DNA of 64,000 nt from Escherichia coli O127:H6 str. E2348/69 (GCF_000026545.1 NC_011601.1), one strand, 5' to 3'; positions 6,861 to 36,560 are shown, counted from the stretch's first letter. The notes: generated by a model not told the origin, from the letters alone. Program-made: numbers and translations.

Positions 6861-9800
6861 TCAAGCGATCGCGTTCTCTTCCAGTTCACGCATAAACTGG
6901 CGTACCCATTCGATACGCGTTTTCCGCTCGCTCAAATCCTGAATAAACTTCAGACGCGTCGGACCATCAAGGCGGTAATGCTGCGGCTGTTTTTGCAGCA
7001 AACCAATCAACCAGGCTGGATTAACGTGATTCTTCTCGGCAAATTCGATCACGCCGCCTTTCTCATTACCTTCCAGCTTCCTGATCCCCAGTTTCTGCGC
7101 TTGCTGGCGCAGACGGGCAATATCCAGCAGGGTACGCGCCGGATCCGGCAGCAGGCCGAAGCGATCGATAAGCTCGACTTTGATCTCTTCCAGTTCGTTT
7201 TCCGTTTTGGCGCTGGCAATACGTTTGTAGAACGACAGACGCGTGTTCACGTCAGGGATGAAATCATCTGGCAATAGCGACGGCATCCGCAGCTCGACTT
7301 CTGTTTGCTGGCTGGTGAGATCTTCCAGCGACGGCTCGCGTCCGGCTTTCAGCGCATCGACGGCGTTTTCCAGCAACTCCATATACAGCGAGAAACCGAT
7401 GGTTTCCATTGAGCCGCTTTGTTCTTCGCCAAGCAGTTCACCCGCGCCGCGGATCTCCAGATCGTGCGTTGCCAGCGCAAAACCTGCACCGAGATCTTCC
7501 AGCGAGGCAATCGCTTCAAGACGTTTTTGCGCATCGGTAGTCATCGCTTTTGGATGCGGCGTCAGCAGCCATGCATATGCCTGGTGGTGCGAACGCCCGA
7601 CGCGACCGCGCAACTGGTGCAACTGTGCCAGACCGAAGTGATCCGCACGTTCAATGATAATGGTGTTGGCGGTAGGAATGTCGATCCCGGTTTCGATAAT
7701 GGTGGTACAAACCAGCACGTTGAAACGTTGATGATGGAAATCATTCATCACCCGTTCCAGTTCGCGCTCACGCATTTGCCCGTGACCGATAGCAATCCGC
7801 GCTTCAGGTACCAGTTCTGCCAGCCGTTCGGCGGCTTTCTGGATGTTTTCCACATCATTGTAGAGATAATAAACCTGTCCTCCGCGCAAAATTTCACGCA
7901 GGATCGCCTCCCGGACCACCAGACTGTCATACTCACGGACAAAGGTTTTAACTGCCAGACGACGGGCGGGCGGCGTGGCGATAATCGACAGATCGCGCAT
8001 TCCGCTCATTGCCATATTCAGCGTACGTGGGATCGGCGTTGCGGTAAGCGTCAGAATATCCACGTTCGCGCGCATCGCTTTAATGCGCTCTTTATGACGT
8101 ACCCCGAAGCGGTGTTCTTCATCGACAATCAGCAGGCCTAAATCTTTAAACTTGACGTCACTTTGCAGCAGTTTGTGCGTACCGATCAGAATATCAATTT
8201 TCCCTTCCGCCACTTCCGCAAGGATTTGCGTCTGCTCTTTGGCGCTGCGGAAACGGGAGATCATTTCGATACGTACCGGCCAGTTGGCGAAACGGTCGCG
8301 GAAGTTGTCGTAATGCTGCTGCGCGAGAAGGGTGGTAGGCACCAGCACCGCCACCTGTTTGTGGTTATCTACCGCCAGGAAAGCGGCGCGCATCGCCACT
8401 TCTGTTTTACCAAAGCCAACATCGCCGCACACCAGACGATCCATTGCCAGCGGCTGACACATGTCGCTAAGCACCGCATTAATGGCTTGAGCCTGATCCG
8501 GCGTGGTTTCAAACGGGAAGCTGTCGCAGAATAACTGATACTGCTCACGATCGTGTTTAAACGCGAAGCCCTCTTTGGCGGCGCGTTGCGCGTAGATATC
8601 CAGCAATTCCGCCGCCACATCACGCACTTTTTCCGCCGCTTTCTGCCGTGCGCGTGACCAGGCATCGCCACCAAGTTTATGCAGTGGTGCGTTTTCTTCT
8701 GCGCCACCCGCGTAACGGCTAATCAGATGCAGTGACGACACCGGAACATACAGTTTGGCGTCGTTGGCATAGGTGAGCATCAAATACTCGCCAGTAATGC
8801 CTCCAGCTTCGAGCGTGGTCATTCCGGCATAACGACCGACGCCGTGCTCCAGATGGACCACCGGCTGACCAATATGCAGCTCCGCAAGGTTACGGATCAG
8901 TGTATCGGGGTTGATGGCGCGGCGAGAATCCTGACGACGACGGGCAACGCGTTCACCGAGCAGATCGCTTTCGCAAATCAGCGCCAGATTACGTACCGTA
9001 TCGACAAAACCATGCTCTGCAGCGCCAATCATCAGATAACGCCCACGGTCGCTGGCTTCATCAAGACGCATAATGCGTTGCGGAGCAATTTTAATTCGCG
9101 CGAGCAGTTCACCCAACGCTTCACGGCGGCCTTCACTTTCTACCGAGAACACCACCGGACCGTCGAAAGACTCGAGGAACTTACGCAGCGCATCCAGCGG
9201 CGCTTTTTGTTGTGCCTGAATGGCCAGGTCTGGCAGTTTCTGGAAACCTAAATTGGCATTCGCTGCTTTTGTCGGTAAATGTTCAGTTTTTAGCTGCACA
9301 CGGGGCCAGTTTTTCAGCTCTGAGAAGAGCTCATCCACCCGCAGCCAGAGCGATTGTGGTGGCAACAGTGGGCGCATTGGGTCGACACCGCGATTCTCAA
9401 AACGCGCGAGCGTGTCAGCCTGGAAACGTTCGGCACTGTTTTCCAGATCGCCAGTATTTACCAGCAGCGTATTGGCAGGGAAATAACTGAACAGTGGCGG
9501 CAGCGGTTCGCTGAAGAATAGTGGCTGCCAGTACTCGATCCCGGCAGGTAATGTGCCTTTACTCACTTGCTGGTAAATATGTTCCGGATCGCGCTTCACT
9601 TCGAAGGTATCACGCCACTGGCTGCGGAACAGTTCAATTGCCGCTTTATCGGTCGGAAATTCGTGCGCGGGCAGCAGATTGATCGCATCTACTTCCTCCA
9701 GCGTGCGCTGGCTATCGACGTCAAACACCCGCAGGCTGTCGATTTCATCATCAAAGAAATCAAGACGATAAGGCAGCTCACTCCCCATAGGGAAGAGATC

Positions 9801-28494: not shown

Positions 28495-28526
28495 GTTGAG
28501 AAGTAATTTTTACCGGGAGGAAATTT

Positions 28527-28801
28527 ATGGAGACTGTTTTTGACGCACTGAAAGCAATGGGAAAAGCCACATCCATAGAACTTGCTGCGCGCGTGAAGAA
28601 GTGCTGAACGAACTATGGGAACTGAAAAAGGCTGGTTTTGTTGATAAAAGCGCGTACACCTGGCGTGTGGCTGATAACAACGTTCAGCAGGAACAGCCAG
28701 CGCAGGCAGAACTGCCGGAAGAAACCACCACAATGAGTGAAGTTATGCAGCGCATACTGGCATTTTATCAGGGAAATGTTCGATATTTTAGACGTTACTA
28801 G
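28527..28801 (+). pseudogene. Small phage ORF apparently interrupted by frameshift/stop
   Basis: ATG at 28527 gives [26 protein letters not shown] and the sense continues in another frame (ORF 28601-28801). Confidence 0.35.
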
Positions 28802-29240
28802 ATTAAAGAGCATTAGTTCAGATGTGAATTGACATTGTGTGGCACAGGGTTGGGCTAGCGTGGGGGTTTGCTTTGTGTAAGAAACGGATGCTCTGCAAAT
28901 TACTACTAATGCTTAATGTTAGTCTGATCTGCTCCCCGATGATTAATACACCGCTATGTTAGTAATGTCTGTAGATCGCTGTGTGTTGCATCCATCGGTT
29001 GACCCCACAGTCCAAACCAGACTGTCAGCTTTGATTCGATTCTATCTACTCAACCTGTCAGGTAATGTCTGAGCTAATACACAGAGTACGGCTATCGCGA
29101 ACTTTAAGCTAGGTATCTGATACGCACCGTTCACTTGGTCGTACTTCTTGCACTGACTAGCTATCGTGCGCAGTTATTTATAGGTAATCTCCAGTGTATA
29201 ATTTTCCAACTTATGGGAGATTGTAAAACAGGAGGAATAT

Positions 29241-30083
29241 ATGAGGAAAAAATCGTTTGGACGTTGCCCGTTTGATTTCGACGAAGATGTAAAAAAAATA
29301 GCCGCGATAAATAAATATATCCATGCGAAATTTGAGAGGCATAAAAATAAAATAGATAACCTAAAGGGGGTGGAACAAAAATTGATGGTTTTACATTACT
29401 TTAATGTACTGAATGAACTTAGTAATCAGGCTATATTTTCTTTGAGTACCGGAGCCTTTTCAGCATCGGAAGTATTAACTAGAGTTATAATGGAACAGGC
29501 TGCCAATCAATTTTATATAGCAATTGATGATGGAAAAAATGCACAAGCATTACTCAAGGGTAGTAAGAAATTAGTTCATAGTAATGGGAAACGGTGGCTG
29601 GAGTGTTTAAAATCCAAAGAAATGACTAATCCAGCAGCAGATGAAAGGATTCGTATCGGAAAAGAGCTAACTGATATGTTTAATAGATTGTGGCCAAATA
29701 CACCTGAATATCCTGGAACCAAAAAGCTTTTCGAAGTAATTGGCTGGGAAACACACTATCATGCCTATTACGTCCCTCTTTGTGATTCAATACATACATT
29801 CTCTGATGATATGGCAAATATAGTATCTCTATATAATGCAATCCAAAGCGATAAAACTACTGCTATCGAACTCACTCTTGCAGTTAAACAAGAAAATAAA
29901 CGGCTGGCAATTTATAATGTCGTAATTGCTATTGGCCTGCGGTGTGAGGCCTTAGTAAATGTATTTAACTCTTTAGGTTATCGAGATATTATAACTGAAA
30001 TGGCGCCAACAATAGATGCAGTCAACCAGATTATAATTCGATATGATGATTTCGAACATTCCAGAATTTTTTATTGTCAATAA
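29241..30083 (+). CDS. Uncharacterised 280-aa protein in AT-rich accessory island
   Basis: Clean ORF with RBS aggagg 8 nt upstream; visibly AT-rich codon usage; no motif I can assign. Confidence 0.7.
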   Translation: MRKKSFGRCPFDFDEDVKKIAAINKYIHAKFERHKNKIDNLKGVEQKLMVLHYFNVLNELSNQAIFSLSTGAFSASEVLTRVIMEQAANQFYIAIDDGKNAQALLKGSKKLVHSNGKRWLECLKSKEMTNPAADERIRIGKELTDMFNRLWPNTPEYPGTKKLFEVIGWETHYHAYYVPLCDSIHTFSDDMANIVSLYNAIQSDKTTAIELTLAVKQENKRLAIYNVVIAIGLRCEALVNVFNSLGYRDIITEMAPTIDAVNQIIIRYDDFEHSRIFYCQ

Positions 30084-30140
30084 TTAATTGGCAGAATTCG
30101 TACATGCACAACAACTAGTTATAGTTGACCTATTTCGCTC

Positions 30141-30710
30141 TTGAGAGACAACCATACTCAAATCTTCCACATTGCAGGAGATTTGAGTATGAATACGTCA
30201 CCGAGGAACAAAGACAGTATCATAGGCCCAAAAAGACCACTTCAGATATCTCATATCTGGGGGCTCCAAATCCGGCTTGAACTGGAAGGTAAAACGCGTG
30301 ATTTAGCTCGGTTTCAAGCAGAGCTACGGTGCTGCAACTGAAAAACTGGCAGTCCTATCCAATTTGAGATAACCAAAGGGACAAGAGAAGCTGTTTCTGC
30401 ATTGATAAAGCTTGGCAATTTACGCAGTAAAGACTACTTGTTCCGATCTCGGGTCGGTACTAACCAACACATATCAATCCTGCAATATAACCGAATCTTT
30501 CATAGGAGGGAGAAAAGCTTGGTCTCGAAGATTCGCTTTACAGCACACATTCCATGAGAAGAACAAAACCTTGCCTTGTCTGCAAGAAAACTAAGAATCT
30601 CCGGGTGATCCAACTTCCGTTGGGCCATAAGAAAACGGAAAGCACAGTTCGTTATCTGGGTATAGAAGTTGATGATGCATTAGAGATCTCTGAATCGATC
30701 GAAGTCTAAA
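30141..30710 (+). pseudogene. Degraded tyrosine recombinase/integrase
   Basis: Three short frames with recombinase hallmarks: GPKRPLQISHIWGLQIRLELEGKTRDLA (N-terminal) and HSMRRTKPCLV...LPLGHKKTESTVRYLGIEVDDALEISE (box II His/Arg and catalytic Tyr region); interrupted by stops/frameshifts. Confidence 0.6.
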
Positions 30711-31121
30711 GCTGTCAGGGCTGCAGCAGCAGCCCTGTGCCAAGAGCGTACCAATATATGTCTCAAAAAATTGGGCACAGGTCAATATCAATACCAACAA
30801 CTCTGATTGTGCTCATGTGATTTACTCCTGTAGAAAACGCAGACAGTAAAAATATTTCACTGGCTGCTTCAGACAGGGCGTCCATCATATCATTACATAA
30901 CAATAGCGGGGCACGATATCTAGACATGCAGCAACGATGGACATAGAATGAGTACAATCAAAAGCATGTTTAACTACTTTAATTTAAAAATCTTAGAATC
31001 TTAGGTGTAGAGTTCAATACTTAGTTACATACCCTTTTGAAAGCATCACAAATCATAACTATGAGCCTGTTAAAGGCATAGGTATTCTTAATTAAGAGCA
31101 TTTTAATGAGAGAAAAATAAA

Positions 31122-32495
31122 ATGAAAAGACTATATTATACCCATCATGATAGTCGAACCTTAAAACTTGCTATAGAAGGTGATGTTTCTGATAATGCGA
31201 ATATTTTTACAGTAATTGTAGGTAAAAATGGCGTTGGAAAAAGCAGATTGTTATCTCAGATTGCTAAAGACTGTATTCAAGATATTCATTTCTTGAAAAC
31301 TTTTAATCCATTATTTGACAGAGAAATAACACCAAAGTTAATTGCCGTATCTACCAGCCCATTCGATAAATTCCCTCCAGGGCGTAGGTCATTAAATCAC
31401 CAAAGGAAAGAAAATAATTATCGCTATGTGGGTATGCGTGGAGAAGGCCCCTTCGGCGTATCAAATGCCGTATCCCTTTTATCTTCAGCAGCGAGAGGTT
31501 GGCTAGAGAAACTTGCTTATTCAGAAAATCCTGCAAATTTACTCGATGTTTTTCATTCTATTGATTTTGAGCCCCATATAGAGTTTGTATTTAAACCAAC
31601 TTACAACGGACCGGACACTCCTGACTATAACTTCATTGGTGTATATTCAGATGAGATATTAACGGAAGTTAAGGAGTTATATTTAAAATACAATATAAAA
31701 ATTGACAGGAAGAATATTGAGAGTCTCTTAAAGTTAAACTCCGAATCACGTCATGATATTTACGAAGCACTGGTTGAAATTAATCGATTTGAACCTGAAC
31801 GTAGGGCTGTAACCTTGTCAGTCGATTTTACCAATGGTGAAACATTGGTTGGCTCGACTTATGCGAATAATTATTTTTCTAGATCAATTCTTAAACTTAT
31901 GAACGCTGGCTTCATGAGATTGATGGATATGCGACTCATAAAAAAAAGCTATGGTCCCATGTCACTTAAACGTGCGAGCTCGGGAGAACAATGTTTATTA
32001 GTGATGTTGCTTGGAATTGCAGGGCATATAACTGATGGTTCTATAATACTAATTGATGAACCGGAAATAAGCTTGCATCCTCGATGGCAGGAAGAGTTTA
32101 TCATTATGTTAACAAAAGCATTTTTAACTTACTCAGGTTGTCAATTCATAATTGCAACTCATTCACCACAAATAATATCCAATTTGCCGAATAAAGGTTG
32201 TTATATAACATCTTTGTCGAAAAGTTATCTTTATAAAGCAAAATACTTTAGCAACCGGTCTGCAGACTATCAACTTGCGGAACTATTTGATGCCCCTGGC
32301 ATTATGAATGAATACATTGCCAGATTAGCTTTCAATTTACTTTCAAAAGTTAAGACTGCTAAGTTAGTAACAGATGATAATTGGCGTGAATTAAAACAAC
32401 TCCAGCTTCTCCTTGAAAACGTTAATAGTAATGACCCTATTAATGAACTCGTAAATTCCGTATCTCAGGTGTGTGAAATTTATGCCAAAAATTAA
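31122..32495 (+). CDS. ABC/AAA_21-type ATPase, Septu PtuA-like
   Basis: Walker A VIVGKNGVGKSRLL; Walker B + D-loop IILIDEPEISLHP; H-loop IIATHSPQII; 457 aa; overlaps downstream HNH gene. Confidence 0.75.
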   Translation: MKRLYYTHHDSRTLKLAIEGDVSDNANIFTVIVGKNGVGKSRLLSQIAKDCIQDIHFLKTFNPLFDREITPKLIAVSTSPFDKFPPGRRSLNHQRKENNYRYVGMRGEGPFGVSNAVSLLSSAARGWLEKLAYSENPANLLDVFHSIDFEPHIEFVFKPTYNGPDTPDYNFIGVYSDEILTEVKELYLKYNIKIDRKNIESLLKLNSESRHDIYEALVEINRFEPERRAVTLSVDFTNGETLVGSTYANNYFSRSILKLMNAGFMRLMDMRLIKKSYGPMSLKRASSGEQCLLVMLLGIAGHITDGSIILIDEPEISLHPRWQEEFIIMLTKAFLTYSGCQFIIATHSPQIISNLPNKGCYITSLSKSYLYKAKYFSNRSADYQLAELFDAPGIMNEYIARLAFNLLSKVKTAKLVTDDNWRELKQLQLLLENVNSNDPINELVNSVSQVCEIYAKN

Positions 32496-33117
32496 AAATC
32501 CAATTAGATTCAGCGCAGAGTCATTAGATATTATTGAGAAAAAATTGTCTTCTCCAGATTTTAAGCATACCAACTGGGGAGATGATGATTTGCAAGTTCT
32601 CCGTGCAGAAATTAGAAATCATTACAGAGAAGAACAAAAGCTAGAATGTGTATATTGTCATGAGCCTATTGGGGTAAGAGCTGCACAAGCTGCTCCTATA
32701 GAGCATATTGTGCCAAAATCTCAATATCTATGTTTTATTTTTGAACCTAAGAATCTATGTGTAGTATGTCCTGACTGCAATGAATTCAAAGGTAAAAATG
32801 AAGTGTTATTTGAACCCGTAATAAATGGGGGGCGGCGCAAAAACTATCCAACTGCATCTGCATCATTTCGCATCGTTCATCCACATATAGATGATTATGA
32901 GATGCATATTATAAAAGCAAATCGTGTTTATGTGGACAAAACACCTAAAGGGCACTATACCATTGGAATATGTAAACTAAATAGATTTTTTCATTATTTT
33001 GGGATGTGTGATGAATTTGTTAATGATGCAAAAATTGCTGAGGCAAATGAAAATTTTTTCAAAAAAGGTAGTATTACTACTAATGAATTATTGGATGATG
33101 ACATTCATTTGATTTAA
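32473..33117 (+). CDS. HNH endonuclease, Septu PtuB-like
   Basis: HNH/zinc motif CVYCHEP...IEHIVPKS...CVVCPDCNEFKGKN; 214 aa; start overlaps ATPase gene end by 23 nt. Confidence 0.75.
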   Translation: MKFMPKIKNPIRFSAESLDIIEKKLSSPDFKHTNWGDDDLQVLRAEIRNHYREEQKLECVYCHEPIGVRAAQAAPIEHIVPKSQYLCFIFEPKNLCVVCPDCNEFKGKNEVLFEPVINGGRRKNYPTASASFRIVHPHIDDYEMHIIKANRVYVDKTPKGHYTIGICKLNRFFHYFGMCDEFVNDAKIAEANENFFKKGSITTNELLDDDIHLI

Positions 33118-33371
33118 CTATGAATTATTATATTGTAAAGTAATCAGGTAAGATATGTTAGACAGTGAGACTATTGCCTTACAGAATTCATTATTCTTAT
33201 GGATCGCCTTTCTGACTGATTTCATATTGGCGGGGTAACGGGAGTTAAGTAGAATGGCTGCGGGTGCTTGAGGCTATCTGTCTCAGGCATGAACACCAAA
33301 GGCAGATAGAGAAAAGCCCCAGTTAACATTACGCGTCCTGCAAGACGCTTAACATTAATCTGAGGCCAATT

Positions 33372-34460
33372 TCATGCTAGACACATGTAGGTTAGCCTCT
33401 TACGTGCCGGAAGGCAAGGAGATGTATGGGTCCACCACATATTGCAATTTTTATTCTCTTTTAAAATATATTCCACGGGCGTCATTAGTGCGAGCGCCTT
33501 GTGGGGTCTTTTGCTGTTATACAGCACCAGATATTCCGCCAGCTTCTGGTTAAATAGCGCCAGATCTTCAAAGAGTAAAATCTCATTAAATTCAATAAAC
33601 TGCTCTCTTAACGTCCGGTTAAAACGTTCACAGATAGCGTTCATTTTTGGCGTGTAGGGATAGGTCCAGAGGTGTTTGATAGCGGCTTCCTGCAGCGTTT
33701 TGTCGAAGTTTCCCAGGAACTCTTTTCCGTTATCTGTGATTATCTGGCTGATACCGACCGGGAACAACCGGGCTGCGCGGCTGAAGAAGTGATTGACGAT
33801 ATCACTGTTGAGTGACGGCACAGCCAGCGCCAGCGCGTAATTGCTGCATTCGTCGATCATGGTGATGACATAGCGACGCAGTTCGCCCATTCTGAGCTCA
33901 ATGGCGTCCATCCCAATGAGCTCACCTGTCTTTACCGGGCGGTAGTGCTTTGGCCTGCGGGGTTTGGCAGACCGCTTTTTGACAAGCAGTGCCTTCCCCC
34001 GCGATCCCAGACGCACAGGTATCATCCGCATTTTATCATGTGCGGCAGCGATCATTCTGCCGATGGTGGAAACACTCGGACAGGCCAGATAGCGCTGTTC
34101 GCACCAGGGCTTCAGGCGAACAAAAATCTGCTCTTTACCGAGGTTCGGCAGCTCTGTCCTGAGGCGTCGAATCTCTTTCAGCACATCGGGATGCCAGTGT
34201 TTTTTTCGTCGCACCAGAGGTGCCTTACTGTGCGGGATTAGCCCCTCAGGTCCTTCCTTGTTCAGTAACTGACGCCACCAGTAAAGCGTGCGGCAGGACA
34301 CGCCAAAGGCTTCAGAAGCTGCAGAAATACCGTGTTTATCCCAGAAGTGCAGAGCCTTCATTCTCATTGTTGCTATATCAGCCATCACTGAAAGCCTCAA
34401 CGCATAATCGGCCGTTTGGTAGTACTTAGGATAGCCAACCATCAGATGCTGCATTTGCAT
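33372..34460 (-). CDS. IS481-family DDE transposase (integrase-core/rve domain)
   Basis: 362 aa; N-terminal HTH (...CRTLYWWRQ...), DDE core, C-terminal ...YNSKRPHKALALMTPVEY typical of rve transposases. Confidence 0.7.
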   Translation of the reverse strand: MQMQHLMVGYPKYYQTADYALRLSVMADIATMRMKALHFWDKHGISAASEAFGVSCRTLYWWRQLLNKEGPEGLIPHSKAPLVRRKKHWHPDVLKEIRRLRTELPNLGKEQIFVRLKPWCEQRYLACPSVSTIGRMIAAAHDKMRMIPVRLGSRGKALLVKKRSAKPRRPKHYRPVKTGELIGMDAIELRMGELRRYVITMIDECSNYALALAVPSLNSDIVNHFFSRAARLFPVGISQIITDNGKEFLGNFDKTLQEAAIKHLWTYPYTPKMNAICERFNRTLREQFIEFNEILLFEDLALFNQKLAEYLVLYNSKRPHKALALMTPVEYILKENKNCNMWWTHTSPCLPARKRLTYMCLA

Positions 34461-34490
34461 AGTGCAATCTCCCCTTACTTATCCGGAGGC
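33372..34490 (-). mobile_element. IS481-family insertion sequence (approximate limits)
   Basis: Single-ORF DDE transposase; imperfect terminal inverted repeats ccggaaggcaaggagat (about 33406) and revcomp of atctccccttacttatccgg (about 34467-34486); exact ends not resolved. Confidence 0.6.
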
Positions 34491-34531
34491 AATTGCAATA
34501 TCTCTGTGAACTTACACAGGAGAAGCAGGCT

Positions 34532-34687
34532 ATGAAGCAGCAAAAGGCGATGTTAATCGCCCTGATCGTCATCTGTTTAACCGTCATAGTGACGACACTG
34601 GTAACGAGGAAAGACCTCTGCGAGGTACGAATCCGAACCGGCCAGACGGAGGCCGCTGTCTTCACAGCTTACGAACCTGAGGAGTAA
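34532..34687 (+). CDS. hok: Hok/Gef-family type I toxin
   Basis: MKQQKAMLIALIVICLTVIVTTLVTRKDLCEVRIRTGQTEAAVFTAYEPEE, near-identical in pattern to Hok/Gef peptides as recalled. Confidence 0.9.
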   Translation: MKQQKAMLIALIVICLTVIVTTLVTRKDLCEVRIRTGQTEAAVFTAYEPEE

Positions 34688-34756
34688 GAGACCCGGCGAG
34701 GGAGAAATCCCTCGCCACCTCTGATGTGGCAGGCATCCTCAACGCACCCGCACTTA

Positions 34757-34777
34757 ACCCGCTTCGGCGGGTTTTTG
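34757..34777 (+). terminator. Rho-independent terminator downstream of hok
   Basis: cccgcttcggcggg stem-loop followed by a T-run. Confidence 0.7.
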
Positions 34778-34903
34778 TTTTTATTTTCAACGCGTTTGAA
34801 GTTCTGGACGGCGCCGGAATAGAATCAAAAATACTTAAGTAGCGCGCAGGGATAAGAGGGATGGTCCCTTAAAGGGGAGAGCTAATTATCCGGAAGGATT
34901 CTG

Positions 34904-35155
34904 ATGATGAACATCGAAGAACTGCGTAAAATTTTTTGTGAAGATGGCCTCTATGCTGTGTGCGTTGAAAATGGAAATCTTGTTAGTCATTACCGCATTA
35001 TGTGTTTGCGAAAGAATGGGGCTGCGTTAATTAATTTTGTGGATGGTCGAGTGACAGACGGATTTATCTTGCGCGAAGGTGAGTTTGTCACTTCATTACA
35101 GGCACTGAAAGAGATCGGAATAAAAGCAGGCTTTTCAGCTTTTGCAGAAGAATAA
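34904..35155 (+). CDS. Hypothetical phage protein (83 aa)
   Basis: ORF with plausible spacing in the nin region; no recognisable motif. Confidence 0.45.
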   Translation: MMNIEELRKIFCEDGLYAVCVENGNLVSHYRIMCLRKNGAALINFVDGRVTDGFILREGEFVTSLQALKEIGIKAGFSAFAEE

Positions 35156-35429
35156 ACTCATCTACAATCTTGCGCGGGGCTGAACTCCCGCTGAGTAACA
35201 CCGTGCCACCGGAGAAAACCGATGGCACGCAACGTAAAATATTACAATTCTGATAATTCGCCCGTTCTTGCCTGCACGCACGAGCGGTATTCTCACGCAT
35301 TCAAGTCTGAATGGTTCCAACACCCTCCATGTACTGAAGAGCAGGCTGAATGGACAATTCAGTGTTACCGCAGGCGCGGATACGAGGTTAAGAAAGCCCT
35401 CAGCCTCGATTATCGTCACTGGATAATCT

Positions 35430-36560
35430 ATGTCAGGCTCCCTTATTCCGAACGCTCACCGCGCCCATCCCGCACATACCAGCAACGGATCTGGAGGTAA
35501 CGTGCGGATATTACTTCGACCTGTTCTGGTACCGGAACTTGGGCTGGTGGTCCTTAGGCCGGGCCGTGAATCCATGCAAGTATTTCATAACCCTCGAGTG
35601 CTGGTGGAGCCTGAACCGAAAAGCATGCGCGGTCTGCCGTCCGGAGTCGTCCCTGCCGTTCGCCAGCCGCTGGCGGAGGATAAATCATTACTGCCATTTT
35701 TCAGCGATGAGCGGGTGATTCGTGCTGCTGGCGGCGCTGGGGCACTGTCTGACTGGCTGTTGCGTCATGTCAAATCCTGCCAGTGGCCTCATGGTGACTA
35801 TCATCACAGTGAAATCGTCATACATCGTTACGGTACCGGCGCGATGGTGTTGTGCTGGCACTGCGACAACCAGTTGCGTGACCAGACATCCGAATCACTC
35901 GGGCAACTTGCTCATCAAAACCTGTCAGCATGGATGATTGACGTCATACGCCATGCAGTGAATGGCACGCAGGAGCGGGAATTATCGCTGGCTGAATTGT
36001 GCTGCTGGGCTTCTGTAAATGATGTAGTGGATGCCATGACCGAAAATATGGCGCGTCGAATCCTGAAGCTTCCGGGTGAAAAAATCCGCTCAGTATACCG
36101 CGAGAGCGACATCGTACCGGGAGAGCAGACCGCCATCAGCATACTGAAGCAGCGCACAAAAAATATTGCGCCGTTGCCTCACGCCCACCAGCAACAGAAT
36201 CCACCACAGGAAAAGACGGTGGTCAGCATTGCCGTTGATCCGGAGTCACCGGCTCAGTATCTCCAGCGCCAGAAACCACAACGGGAAGAGATGCCTGTAT
36301 ACACGCGCTGGGTAAAAACGCAGAAATGCATGACGTGTGGCAATCAGGCAGATGATCCGCATCACATCATTGGTCATGGACTGGGAGGGATGGGAACAAA
36401 GGCTGATGATTTGTTTGTTATTCCGCTGTGCCGTAAATGCCATAGCGAACTACACGCCGGGGTAAAAGATTTTGAAGAAAAACACGGCAGCCAGCTGTTG
36501 TTGCTGATTCGTTTTTTAATGCACGCGAGAAATTCGGGTGTCCTGAAGTGGAAAGCATGA
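35430..36560 (+). CDS. nin-region protein with C-terminal Cys/His cluster (DUF968-like)
   Basis: C-terminal CMTCGNQADDPHHIIGH...LCRKCHSELH zinc-finger/HNH-like motif; precedes rusA; start uncertain. Confidence 0.6.
   Translation: MSGSLIPNAHRAHPAHTSNGSGGNVRILLRPVLVPELGLVVLRPGRESMQVFHNPRVLVEPEPKSMRGLPSGVVPAVRQPLAEDKSLLPFFSDERVIRAAGGAGALSDWLLRHVKSCQWPHGDYHHSEIVIHRYGTGAMVLCWHCDNQLRDQTSESLGQLAHQNLSAWMIDVIRHAVNGTQERELSLAELCCWASVNDVVDAMTENMARRILKLPGEKIRSVYRESDIVPGEQTAISILKQRTKNIAPLPHAHQQQNPPQEKTVVSIAVDPESPAQYLQRQKPQREEMPVYTRWVKTQKCMTCGNQADDPHHIIGHGLGGMGTKADDLFVIPLCRKCHSELHAGVKDFEEKHGSQLLLLIRFLMHARNSGVLKWKA

Follow-up and report, generated by a model that had tools for sequence, protein, structure and literature searches.

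The type I Septu system, formed by PtuA and PtuB, was reportedly described by Doron and colleagues in 2018, and the system of ATCC 25922 (structure 8EE4) and Septu Ec-B88 are characterised examples in E. coli. The present work concerns a pair of genes similar to this system in Escherichia coli O127:H6 strain E2348/69, the reference enteropathogenic E. coli (EPEC) strain. The analysed stretch of DNA has 64,000 nucleotides (the window), and is 100% identical to the E2348/69 chromosome (NZ_CP059840.2). It includes a DicB/Qin-type lambdoid prophage whose integration site adjoins potC. The pair lies in a block of low guanine-cytosine (GC) content, referred to as the island, between the replication genes and the hok/sok locus of the prophage. 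Similar to type I Septu, it is an operon of two overlapping genes, one for an ABC-type ATPase and one for an HNH nuclease, with full-length PADLOC matches and intact motifs. Different from type I Septu, the window pair belongs to a divergent subfamily, and its location is a slot of a lambdoid prophage. The phages against which Septu Ec-B88 protects are mainly Demerecviridae, with some T-even phages, and this system needs the PtuA Walker motifs as well as H75 and N91 of PtuB (PMC13096335). The window allele has all of the corresponding residues, with H75 and N91 at the same residue numbers in its PtuB. In other E. coli Septu systems, protection was shown to depend on the ATPase and HNH active sites (PMC13096335). 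We regard it as likely that the island is a mosaic block of cargo (a 'moron') in a variable slot of the potC prophage, and that Septu is its working part. Judged from its relatives, the island is made of three independently distributed pieces, a DUF5677 cassette, a recombinase unit of ~0.7 kb and the Septu cassette.

Similar to the P2 and P4 hotspots (Rousset et al. 2022) and to lambdoid moron slots, the island occupies a fixed position that holds unrelated low-GC cargo, including the validated PD-T7-1 (mEp460). Septu has been reported in the P4 hotspot (Rousset et al.). The module with DUF5677 is also found in the P2 tail-gene cargo slot, which is described in the literature as an accessory or defence hotspot. 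Different from the P2 and P4 hotspots, the replication-to-hok/sok slot of DicB/Qin-type phages also has virulence cargo (paa). No account of this slot as a defence hotspot was found in the searchable literature.

The recombinase unit shares with the Hin and Gin segments and with FimB/FimE a segment of ~0.7-0.8 kb, bounded by inverted repeats, with a recombinase of ~200 amino acids. However, in contrast to Hin and Gin, its enzyme is a tyrosine and not a serine recombinase, and no orientation polymorphism was seen; in contrast to Hin, Gin and Fim, copies of the unit are near-identical in unrelated contexts, and cargo is inserted at the unit ends. Like integrons, the locus possesses a tyrosine recombinase gene with small cassettes of unrelated function beside it and recurrent fixed breakpoints. 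Nevertheless, the protein of the unit has 200 amino acids and the catalytic domain only, and cargo is present on both sides of the gene. Two NCBIfam integron-integrase models matched with E = 1.5e-3 and ~18 bits, against cut-offs of 265 and 435, and no attC-like repeats or cassette ends were found at the island.

A variable cargo slot in the potC prophage

The GC profile of the window is ~0.33-0.36 over positions ~29000-33250, whereas both flanks have 0.45-0.58. A local rise to 0.45 at 30250-30750 inside the block is due to the recombinase segment, which has a GC content of 0.447, unlike both AT-rich neighbours. With a GC content of 0.368, the island (28732-33189) is the minimum among all spans of 4,458 bp in the window; spans that do not overlap it have a mean of 0.508 (standard deviation 0.031, minimum 0.455), which corresponds to z = -4.5 for the island. 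The GC content at third codon positions is 0.27, 0.28 and 0.21 in the three intact island genes, whereas the O-like, P, DUF968 and rusA genes have 0.46-0.63. An earlier reading made from the DNA without database searches (the sequence-only reading) had described an AT-rich island at 28800-33300 with a codon usage different from the rest of the prophage. The sliding-window GC and codon calculations bore out both differences, and these limits lie within ~100 bp of the junctions obtained by comparison with relatives (28731/28732 and 33189/33190). Its gene content was found as listed, namely an orphan open reading frame (ORF), which encodes a DUF5677 protein, recombinase fragments and an ATPase and HNH pair. 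The gene order is the P gene (end 28494), the DUF5677 gene, the recombinase fragments, the ATPase, the HNH nuclease, IS481, hokD and nin-type genes.

The genome survey covered 5,426 complete E. coli genomes, and 18 of them carry at least 80% of the island (the carriers). Island-less prophages align with the window up to 28731 only; one of them, a close relative with a left flank 100% identical up to the junction, has different cargo there. At the right junction, sequence common to thousands of genomes resumes. Five different contents of the slot, which extends from the replication genes to the hok/sok-nin region, were found across related phages, with this island counted as one of them. The others include paa with a fimbrial pseudogene, a DUF977 gene with an alpha/beta hydrolase, and, in phage Evi, a regulator with an acetyltransferase. 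In phage mEp460_ev081 the slot is occupied by a gene for a protein of 449 amino acids that corresponds to PD-T7-1 (PADLOC E = 4e-157). The block is variable cargo and not conserved core, because carriers are few and related phages have unrelated content at the same place. With conserved flanks and unrelated content, the position is, by these alignments, a prophage cargo (moron) slot.

The sequence-only reading had also proposed an acquired cassette inserted between the replication module and the nin region. Acquired cargo at this position is supported, but not a simple insertion, since the block replaces other content of the slot. The first ~190 bp of the island are similar to phages mEp460_ev081 and Evi (81-84% identity over 28733-28888), and this segment is, as judged by its identity to phages, a recombination scar and not AT-rich cargo. 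The replaced slot content, the truncation of DUF1627 at 28731 and the ~190-bp LygF-type flank point to homologous exchange between phages. This prophage lineage thus seems to have acquired the block in a homologous exchange with a phage of the LygF type, in which DUF1627 was truncated.

The Septu cassette

PtuA matched the PADLOC model PDLC00283 with E = 1.9e-165 over residues 2-455 of 457, and PtuB matched PDLC00325 with E = 1.1e-83 over residues 4-209 of 211. The motifs of PtuA are intact, including Walker A GKNGVGKS (G34-S41, with K40), the signature SSGEQ (286), Walker B LIDEPE (310, with D313) and the H-loop ATHSP (345). The motifs of PtuB are also intact (CxxC at 56, H75, N91 and CxxC at 96), and the start of ptuB overlaps the end of ptuA by 14 nucleotides. 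Members of the PtuA cluster match Pfam AAA_15 and AAA_21, and the subfamily is large and widespread in Gammaproteobacteria. No reverse-transcriptase-like ORF was detected in 28500-35500, and an Rfam scan (E <= 0.1) detected no retron RNA nearby; therefore, the pair is considered a stand-alone Septu and not the effector pair of a type I-A (Eco7) retron. The NCBIfam retron-Ec78 models scored far under their cut-offs, with 65.8 versus 500 bits for PtuA and 30.6 versus 150 bits for PtuB. The sequence-only reading had left the ATPase and HNH pair as anonymous cargo, which the full-length PADLOC matches correct to an anti-phage system. By motifs and family matches, the pair is an intact type I Septu.

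The cassette comprises an arm of 40 bp with GGGCACAGGTCA (30773-30784), promoter-like sites at 30921-30949 and 30970-30999, ptuA and ptuB. Two copies exist without the recombinase. A chromosomal island (L098/L099) aligns over 30759-33188 at 89.3% identity, and the other copy, located at a Klebsiella prophage edge, over 30915-33130 at 85.3%; both are low-GC inserts in surroundings of higher GC content. A hairpin, AAGCGTACAnACAATTATACATnGTGnGTACGCTT, is located 3' of the cassette in both of these contexts (L098 9065-9110, L095 9040-9080), and its arms, AGCGTAC and GTACGCT, are similar to the terminal AGCG(G/T)AC of the recombinase unit. In the window the hairpin is missing, as the sequence is interrupted before it by the junction at 33189.

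Both ptu ORFs are intact and 99.3-100% identical across all 18 carriers. The conservation of these ORFs while the adjoining recombinase decayed suggests selection on PtuAB. By analogy with characterised E. coli Septu, the PtuA-PtuB complex would be inactive until phage infection, and it would then protect the lysogen population, and hence the prophage, from other phages. The overlapping ptuA and ptuB appear to be placed under their own promoter region. DUF5677, to the left of Septu and inside the recombinase unit, would be a second candidate defence gene. From the same analogy we infer the anti-phage activity and the RNA target of this Septu allele.

The recombinase unit and the DUF5677 cassette

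The recombinase of the window is a pseudogene, with the RefSeq remark 'frameshifted; internal stop', and the window copy has no intact reading frame of the Phage_integrase catalytic domain. In comparison with intact copies, it has a deletion of 82 bp, which takes out the segment with the first catalytic Arg, an insertion of 1 bp and a deletion of 1 bp. Intact copies match Pfam Phage_integrase PF00589 at residues 35-184 and phrog_216, and possess little beyond the catalytic domain. The recombinase segment is 88-91% identical to a gene annotated as 'site-specific integrase' on plasmids of Klebsiella, Escherichia, Pantoea, Kosakonia and other genera. A query with the whole island matched 2,816 plasmid records in total, and the small unit is widespread on thousands of enterobacterial plasmids. 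At least 549 relatives of the recombinase were found in Gamma- and Betaproteobacteria in a scan of one genome per species. Clustering of the neighbours at 80 loci revealed no recurrent family as a conserved partner gene.

Copies of the unit in unrelated contexts share only a sharply bounded segment of 0.74-0.80 kb. Two Stutzerimonas genomes (L040 and L042) share 738 bp at 99.6% identity, and L074 and L078 share 744 bp at 99.2%, with unrelated flanks in both cases. The ends of the unit are imperfect inverted repeats of ~22 bp. In enterobacterial copies the left repeat corresponds to GTCCGCT... and the right one to ...GTGCCAGAAGCGGAC, and homology between contexts breaks exactly there. As a discrete unit with terminal inverted repeats and near-identical copies in unrelated contexts, the segment is, on comparative grounds, similar to an insertion sequence (IS). 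No target-site duplication was seen at the unit.

The left arm in the window includes the outer repeat TGATCTGCTCCC (28925-28936) and the outer half of the left terminal repeat, ...GTCTGTAGATCGCT. Homology to the P2-type module and to a Kosakonia plasmid begins exactly with this arm. The outer repeats TGACCTGCTCCC and GGGAGCAGGTCA were initially considered as the true ends of the element, an idea that was not upheld; they are doubtful as ends because the right arm also accompanies the Septu cassette in the recombinase-free locus L098. To the left of Septu in L098, ATGTCTGCTTC is directly followed by GTGCCAAGAATGGAC, that is, the outer left repeat is joined to the right repeat. The same 40-bp arm as in the window comes next, at a locus with an identity to the window of only 89%. 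These joined repeats look like an unoccupied or vacated docking site. Sequences similar to the right end of the unit were also found just outside the left arm, as TGGCACAGGGTTG, inverted, at 28840-28852 of the window, and as ...CTGTGCTAGGAGCGGAC, which abuts the left arm directly in a P2-type prophage (L003 5985-6000). They may be traces of site-specific docking.

The perfect inverted repeat of 13 bp over the recombinase start is probably a hairpin that sequesters translation. Such a repeat is kept across the family with differing sequences, for instance TTGTCCTCC/GGAGGACAA and GGTTCTCCTT/AAGGAGAACC (loci L010-L089). Of 73 distinct leaders, 34 have a fully paired Shine-Dalgarno sequence in their minimum-energy fold, versus 21 expected from shuffles, and the leader hairpin suggests translational control of the recombinase. 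A core recombination site at this start-codon inverted repeat (11-13 bp, perfect) was considered and rejected. An RNA hairpin fits better, because across the 73 leaders the arms remain complementary with differing sequences, and the Shine-Dalgarno sequence is in the 3' arm in every case. Many large Klebsiella plasmids retain only a relic of the unit of 78 bp, made up of its left end, the hairpin of the leader and a few initial codons, which suggests repeated loss or truncation at a fixed point.

In Hafnia and Enterobacter an 'empty' form of the unit (L011/L012) was found, in which the 47-bp left arm directly adjoins the recombinase leader. Compared with this form, the window has an insertion of 1,154 bp that contains the DUF5677 gene. 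DUF5677 together with an intact recombinase is present in P2-like prophages of extraintestinal pathogenic (ExPEC) and avian pathogenic (APEC) strains at ~90% identity, as a module between the tail-fibre assembly and tail-sheath genes. The DUF5677 cassette is carried by 55 of the 5,426 E. coli genomes. In the P2-type prophage of strain MS7163 (L003), the 3' end of the recombinase and the right repeat are replaced by a gene for 125 amino acids on the opposite strand (7894-8271, minus strand). This gene belongs to phrog_4155, without a PADLOC match, and is further cargo in the P2 slot. Distant homologues of DUF5677 have no recombinase and no consistent neighbours alongside.

An all-helical, HEPN-like fold, with the HEPN bundle, can be assigned with confidence to the DUF5677 protein. 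The invariant residues of the family are R81, E85, F164, Y173 and H185. Based on the predicted fold, the gene is a candidate defence or toxin gene.

Genes related to defence adjoin the unit at several other loci. In Hafnia paralvei a Lamassu pair is present (L011 4571-7353; LmuB E = 0, LmuA E = 3.6e-198), in the Pantoea plasmid pPANA10 an HEC-08 gene (L009 3555-4655; 2e-173), and in Stutzerimonas a GajA homologue (L040 5636-7243; 1e-104). That the unit marks defence islands as a general rule was rejected, with PADLOC matches for two out of 20 large neighbours sampled across the wider family. The link between unit and defence genes was seen in several enterobacterial contexts and is not general.

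The slot is followed on its right side by the hok/sok locus, where the Rfam model sok RF01794 matched at 33262-33428 with 112 bits. An IS481-family element has a target duplication of 6 bp, AGGAGA, at 33417-33422 and 34518-34523. This copy is present in E2348/69 only; the other 17 carriers continue from 33422 straight into hokD, and by this alignment the element is a later insertion than the island. It lies 8 bp upstream of the hokD ATG, splits the toxin ORF (34532-34687) from the mok/sok leader, and has probably left the hok/sok module disabled or deregulated. On the minus strand, the transposase ORF as annotated (33372-34460) runs 51 nucleotides beyond the IS end into flanking DNA. Just downstream of hokD, a weak, sub-threshold Rfam match to isrK, an Hfq-binding small RNA, was found at 34696-34777 (25.7 bits versus a gathering threshold of 50, E = 0.021). 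The features of the locus are listed in Table 1.

Table 1. Features of the cargo slot and its borders, with positions in the window unless a locus is named
Feature	Position	Strand	Evidence or remark
DUF1627 gene remnant, truncated and frameshifted	28527..28731	+	RefSeq annotation; relatives with full-length gene
LygF-type lambdoid phage flank, ~190 bp (LygF 3' end and spacer)	28732..28923	+	Identity to phages
Left arm of recombinase element: 47-bp element and outer half of the unit's left terminal repeat	28924..28980	+	Homology limits
DUF5677 cassette, 1,154 bp, inserted in the left end of the recombinase unit	28981..30134	+	TCGCT at both junctions
DUF5677 gene, 280 amino acids	29241-30083	+	Orphan ORF of the sequence-only reading
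Inverted repeat, perfect, 13 bp, CATACTCAAATCT-N13-AGATTTGAGTATG	30153..30191	+	Over recombinase Shine-Dalgarno sequence and ATG
Tyrosine recombinase pseudogene (200 amino acids when intact)	~30189..30709	+	Alignment with four intact copies
Terminator-like hairpin CAGGGCTGC...GCAGCCCTG, then right terminal repeat of the unit, GTGCCAAGAGCGTAC	30716..30751	+	Plasmid homology stops at 30751
Septu cassette, discrete 2.43-kb unit	30752..33188	+	Alignment to recombinase-free copies
ptuA, ABC-type ATPase, 457 amino acids	31122..32495	+	PADLOC PtuA PDLC00283
ptuB, HNH nuclease, 211 amino acids	32482..33117	+	PADLOC PtuB PDLC00325; phrog_36683
mok/sok leader of hokD locus, conserved; right border of the slot, outside the island	33190..33422	+	Rfam sok RF01794
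IS481-family element, 1,095 bp	33423..34517	-	Ends and duplication read from sequence
PD-T7-1 in phage mEp460_ev081, between replication genes and mok/hok	L093 3480-4829	-	Record annotation: hypothetical protein

Probable mosaic origin, alternatives and significance

The sequence-only reading took the block as one cassette, and its degraded recombinase as a sign that the island was once mobile. On this account, the whole 4.5-kb block would be the remnant of a single self-mobile integrative element that inserted by its own recombinase and then decayed, in agreement with a recombinase pseudogene in mid-block and a foreign composition throughout. We consider this very improbable, and the separate distributions of the parts already largely refute it. 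The recombinase belongs to a unit of ~0.7 kb within the left module, which has its own terminal repeats and recurs alone in many unrelated contexts. The Septu half is present at 85-89% identity in two other contexts without the recombinase, which also opposes mobility of the island as a whole, and P2-type prophages carry the DUF5677 half without Septu. At the left edge two phage flanks are joined in a hybrid, as is typical of homologous exchange, and the GC content of the recombinase segment sets it apart from both neighbours. A search for repeats at the limits of the island or of the Septu cassette revealed nothing convincing. A perfect direct repeat of 13 nucleotides, ATTACTACTAATG (28899 and 33073), is at chance level for AT-rich DNA. 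The recombinase was therefore not the engine of the whole island, since it is part of a small unit, Septu lies outside this unit at 30751/30752 and exists elsewhere without it, and no convincing repeats were found around the block. At most the left third of the island can be attributed to the recombinase.

The unit could also have been a Hin-style invertible switch that once controlled DUF5677, Septu or both, and is now locked by the dead recombinase. A short segment flanked by inverted repeats with its own small recombinase, as in the Hin segment, agrees with this, as does a protein of about the size of FimB/FimE with a weak NCBIfam match to a DNA invertase of the tyrosine type (E = 2.5e-4, far under the cut-off). 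In addition, Septu is immediately downstream in the same orientation. However, 42 out of 42 full-length plasmid matches with shared flanks are co-linear, and no inverted middle was seen in the records sampled, which are a limited sample. Movement fits better than flipping in place, because the ends of the unit recur as breakpoints beside unrelated DNA and near-identical copies are present in unrelated contexts. A former switch is thus unlikely. A similarly small chance is given to the explanation that the island genes, instead of anti-phage defence, provide selfish modules (addiction or toxin) with a stabilising effect on the prophage, or are passengers that are inert and silenced. Septu acts like abortive infection, with growth arrest as the result (PMC13096335), HEPN-fold proteins are commonly toxins, and the slot adjoins the hok/sok addiction locus and also holds non-defence cargo, such as the adhesin paa. 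Nevertheless, the families that PtuA and PtuB match at full length are based on defence systems validated by experiment, a partner gene similar to an antitoxin is absent, and both ORFs stayed intact in all carriers, whereas the recombinase next door decayed.

Several observations weigh against Septu as the working part of the island and DUF5677 as a second defence gene. Silencing of acquired AT-rich DNA is frequent in E. coli, and the promoter-like sites upstream of ptuA were no commoner than in shuffled sequence in a promoter scan. PtuA matched the solved PtuA 8EE4 around the ABC signature region only (E = 3e-7), and a PDB sequence search with PtuB gave no match to solved structures; for these two reasons this Septu is assigned to a divergent subfamily, to which the tRNA-Tyr target may not carry over. 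Different from HEPN proteins such as AbiV, AbiU2, LsoA/RnlA, HEPN toxins and Csm6, DUF5677 has no conserved Rx4-6H motif, and its lone R-x(4-6)-H at residues 267-273 is not a conserved column. For this reason the protein is called HEPN-like in fold, and not a catalytic HEPN RNase. It also matched neither PADLOC nor the HEPN Pfam models, and its 280 amino acids are roughly double those of a minimal HEPN domain. In one published test, a distant DUF5677 ORF of the Enterococcus group was not among the protective ORFs.

In the mosaic explanation, which we prefer, the pieces have separate histories, and homologous recombination in the flanks would have carried the assembled block from one lambdoid prophage to another. 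DUF1627 would have been truncated in this way, and the LygF-type scar of 190 bp left behind. The function proposed for DUF5677 and the order in which the pieces were assembled are putative.

The island belongs to an already known kind, prophage-borne defence cargo in a moron slot, and the mini recombinase unit alone may be new. No description of such a minimal recombinase unit was found in the searchable literature. We tentatively propose an undescribed class of minimal mobile units that dock at specific sites, with cargo gathering at their ends. Such units would have ~0.7-0.8 kb, terminal inverted repeats of ~22 bp, a leader hairpin sequestering the Shine-Dalgarno and start region, and no other gene. 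In this proposal, the cassettes at the unit ends would often be defence genes, with DUF5677 and Septu here, and Lamassu, HEC-08 and GajA elsewhere. If true, the unit would be a portable docking point at which defence cassettes are exchanged between plasmids, P2-like phages and lambdoid phages.

The island is one more case of temperate phages with anti-phage systems in exchangeable slots. Two previously anonymous genes of the reference EPEC strain E2348/69 can now be labelled as Septu, which may help to explain the phage sensitivities of this strain. The replication-to-hok/sok position of DicB/Qin-type phages behaves as a cargo hotspot for defence (Septu and PD-T7-1) and virulence (paa), and could be mined for new systems. 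DUF5677, an HEPN-like protein found in two different phage cargo slots, is a concrete candidate. The mini recombinase unit, if truly mobile, would offer small defence cassettes a simple route between plasmids and unrelated phage families.

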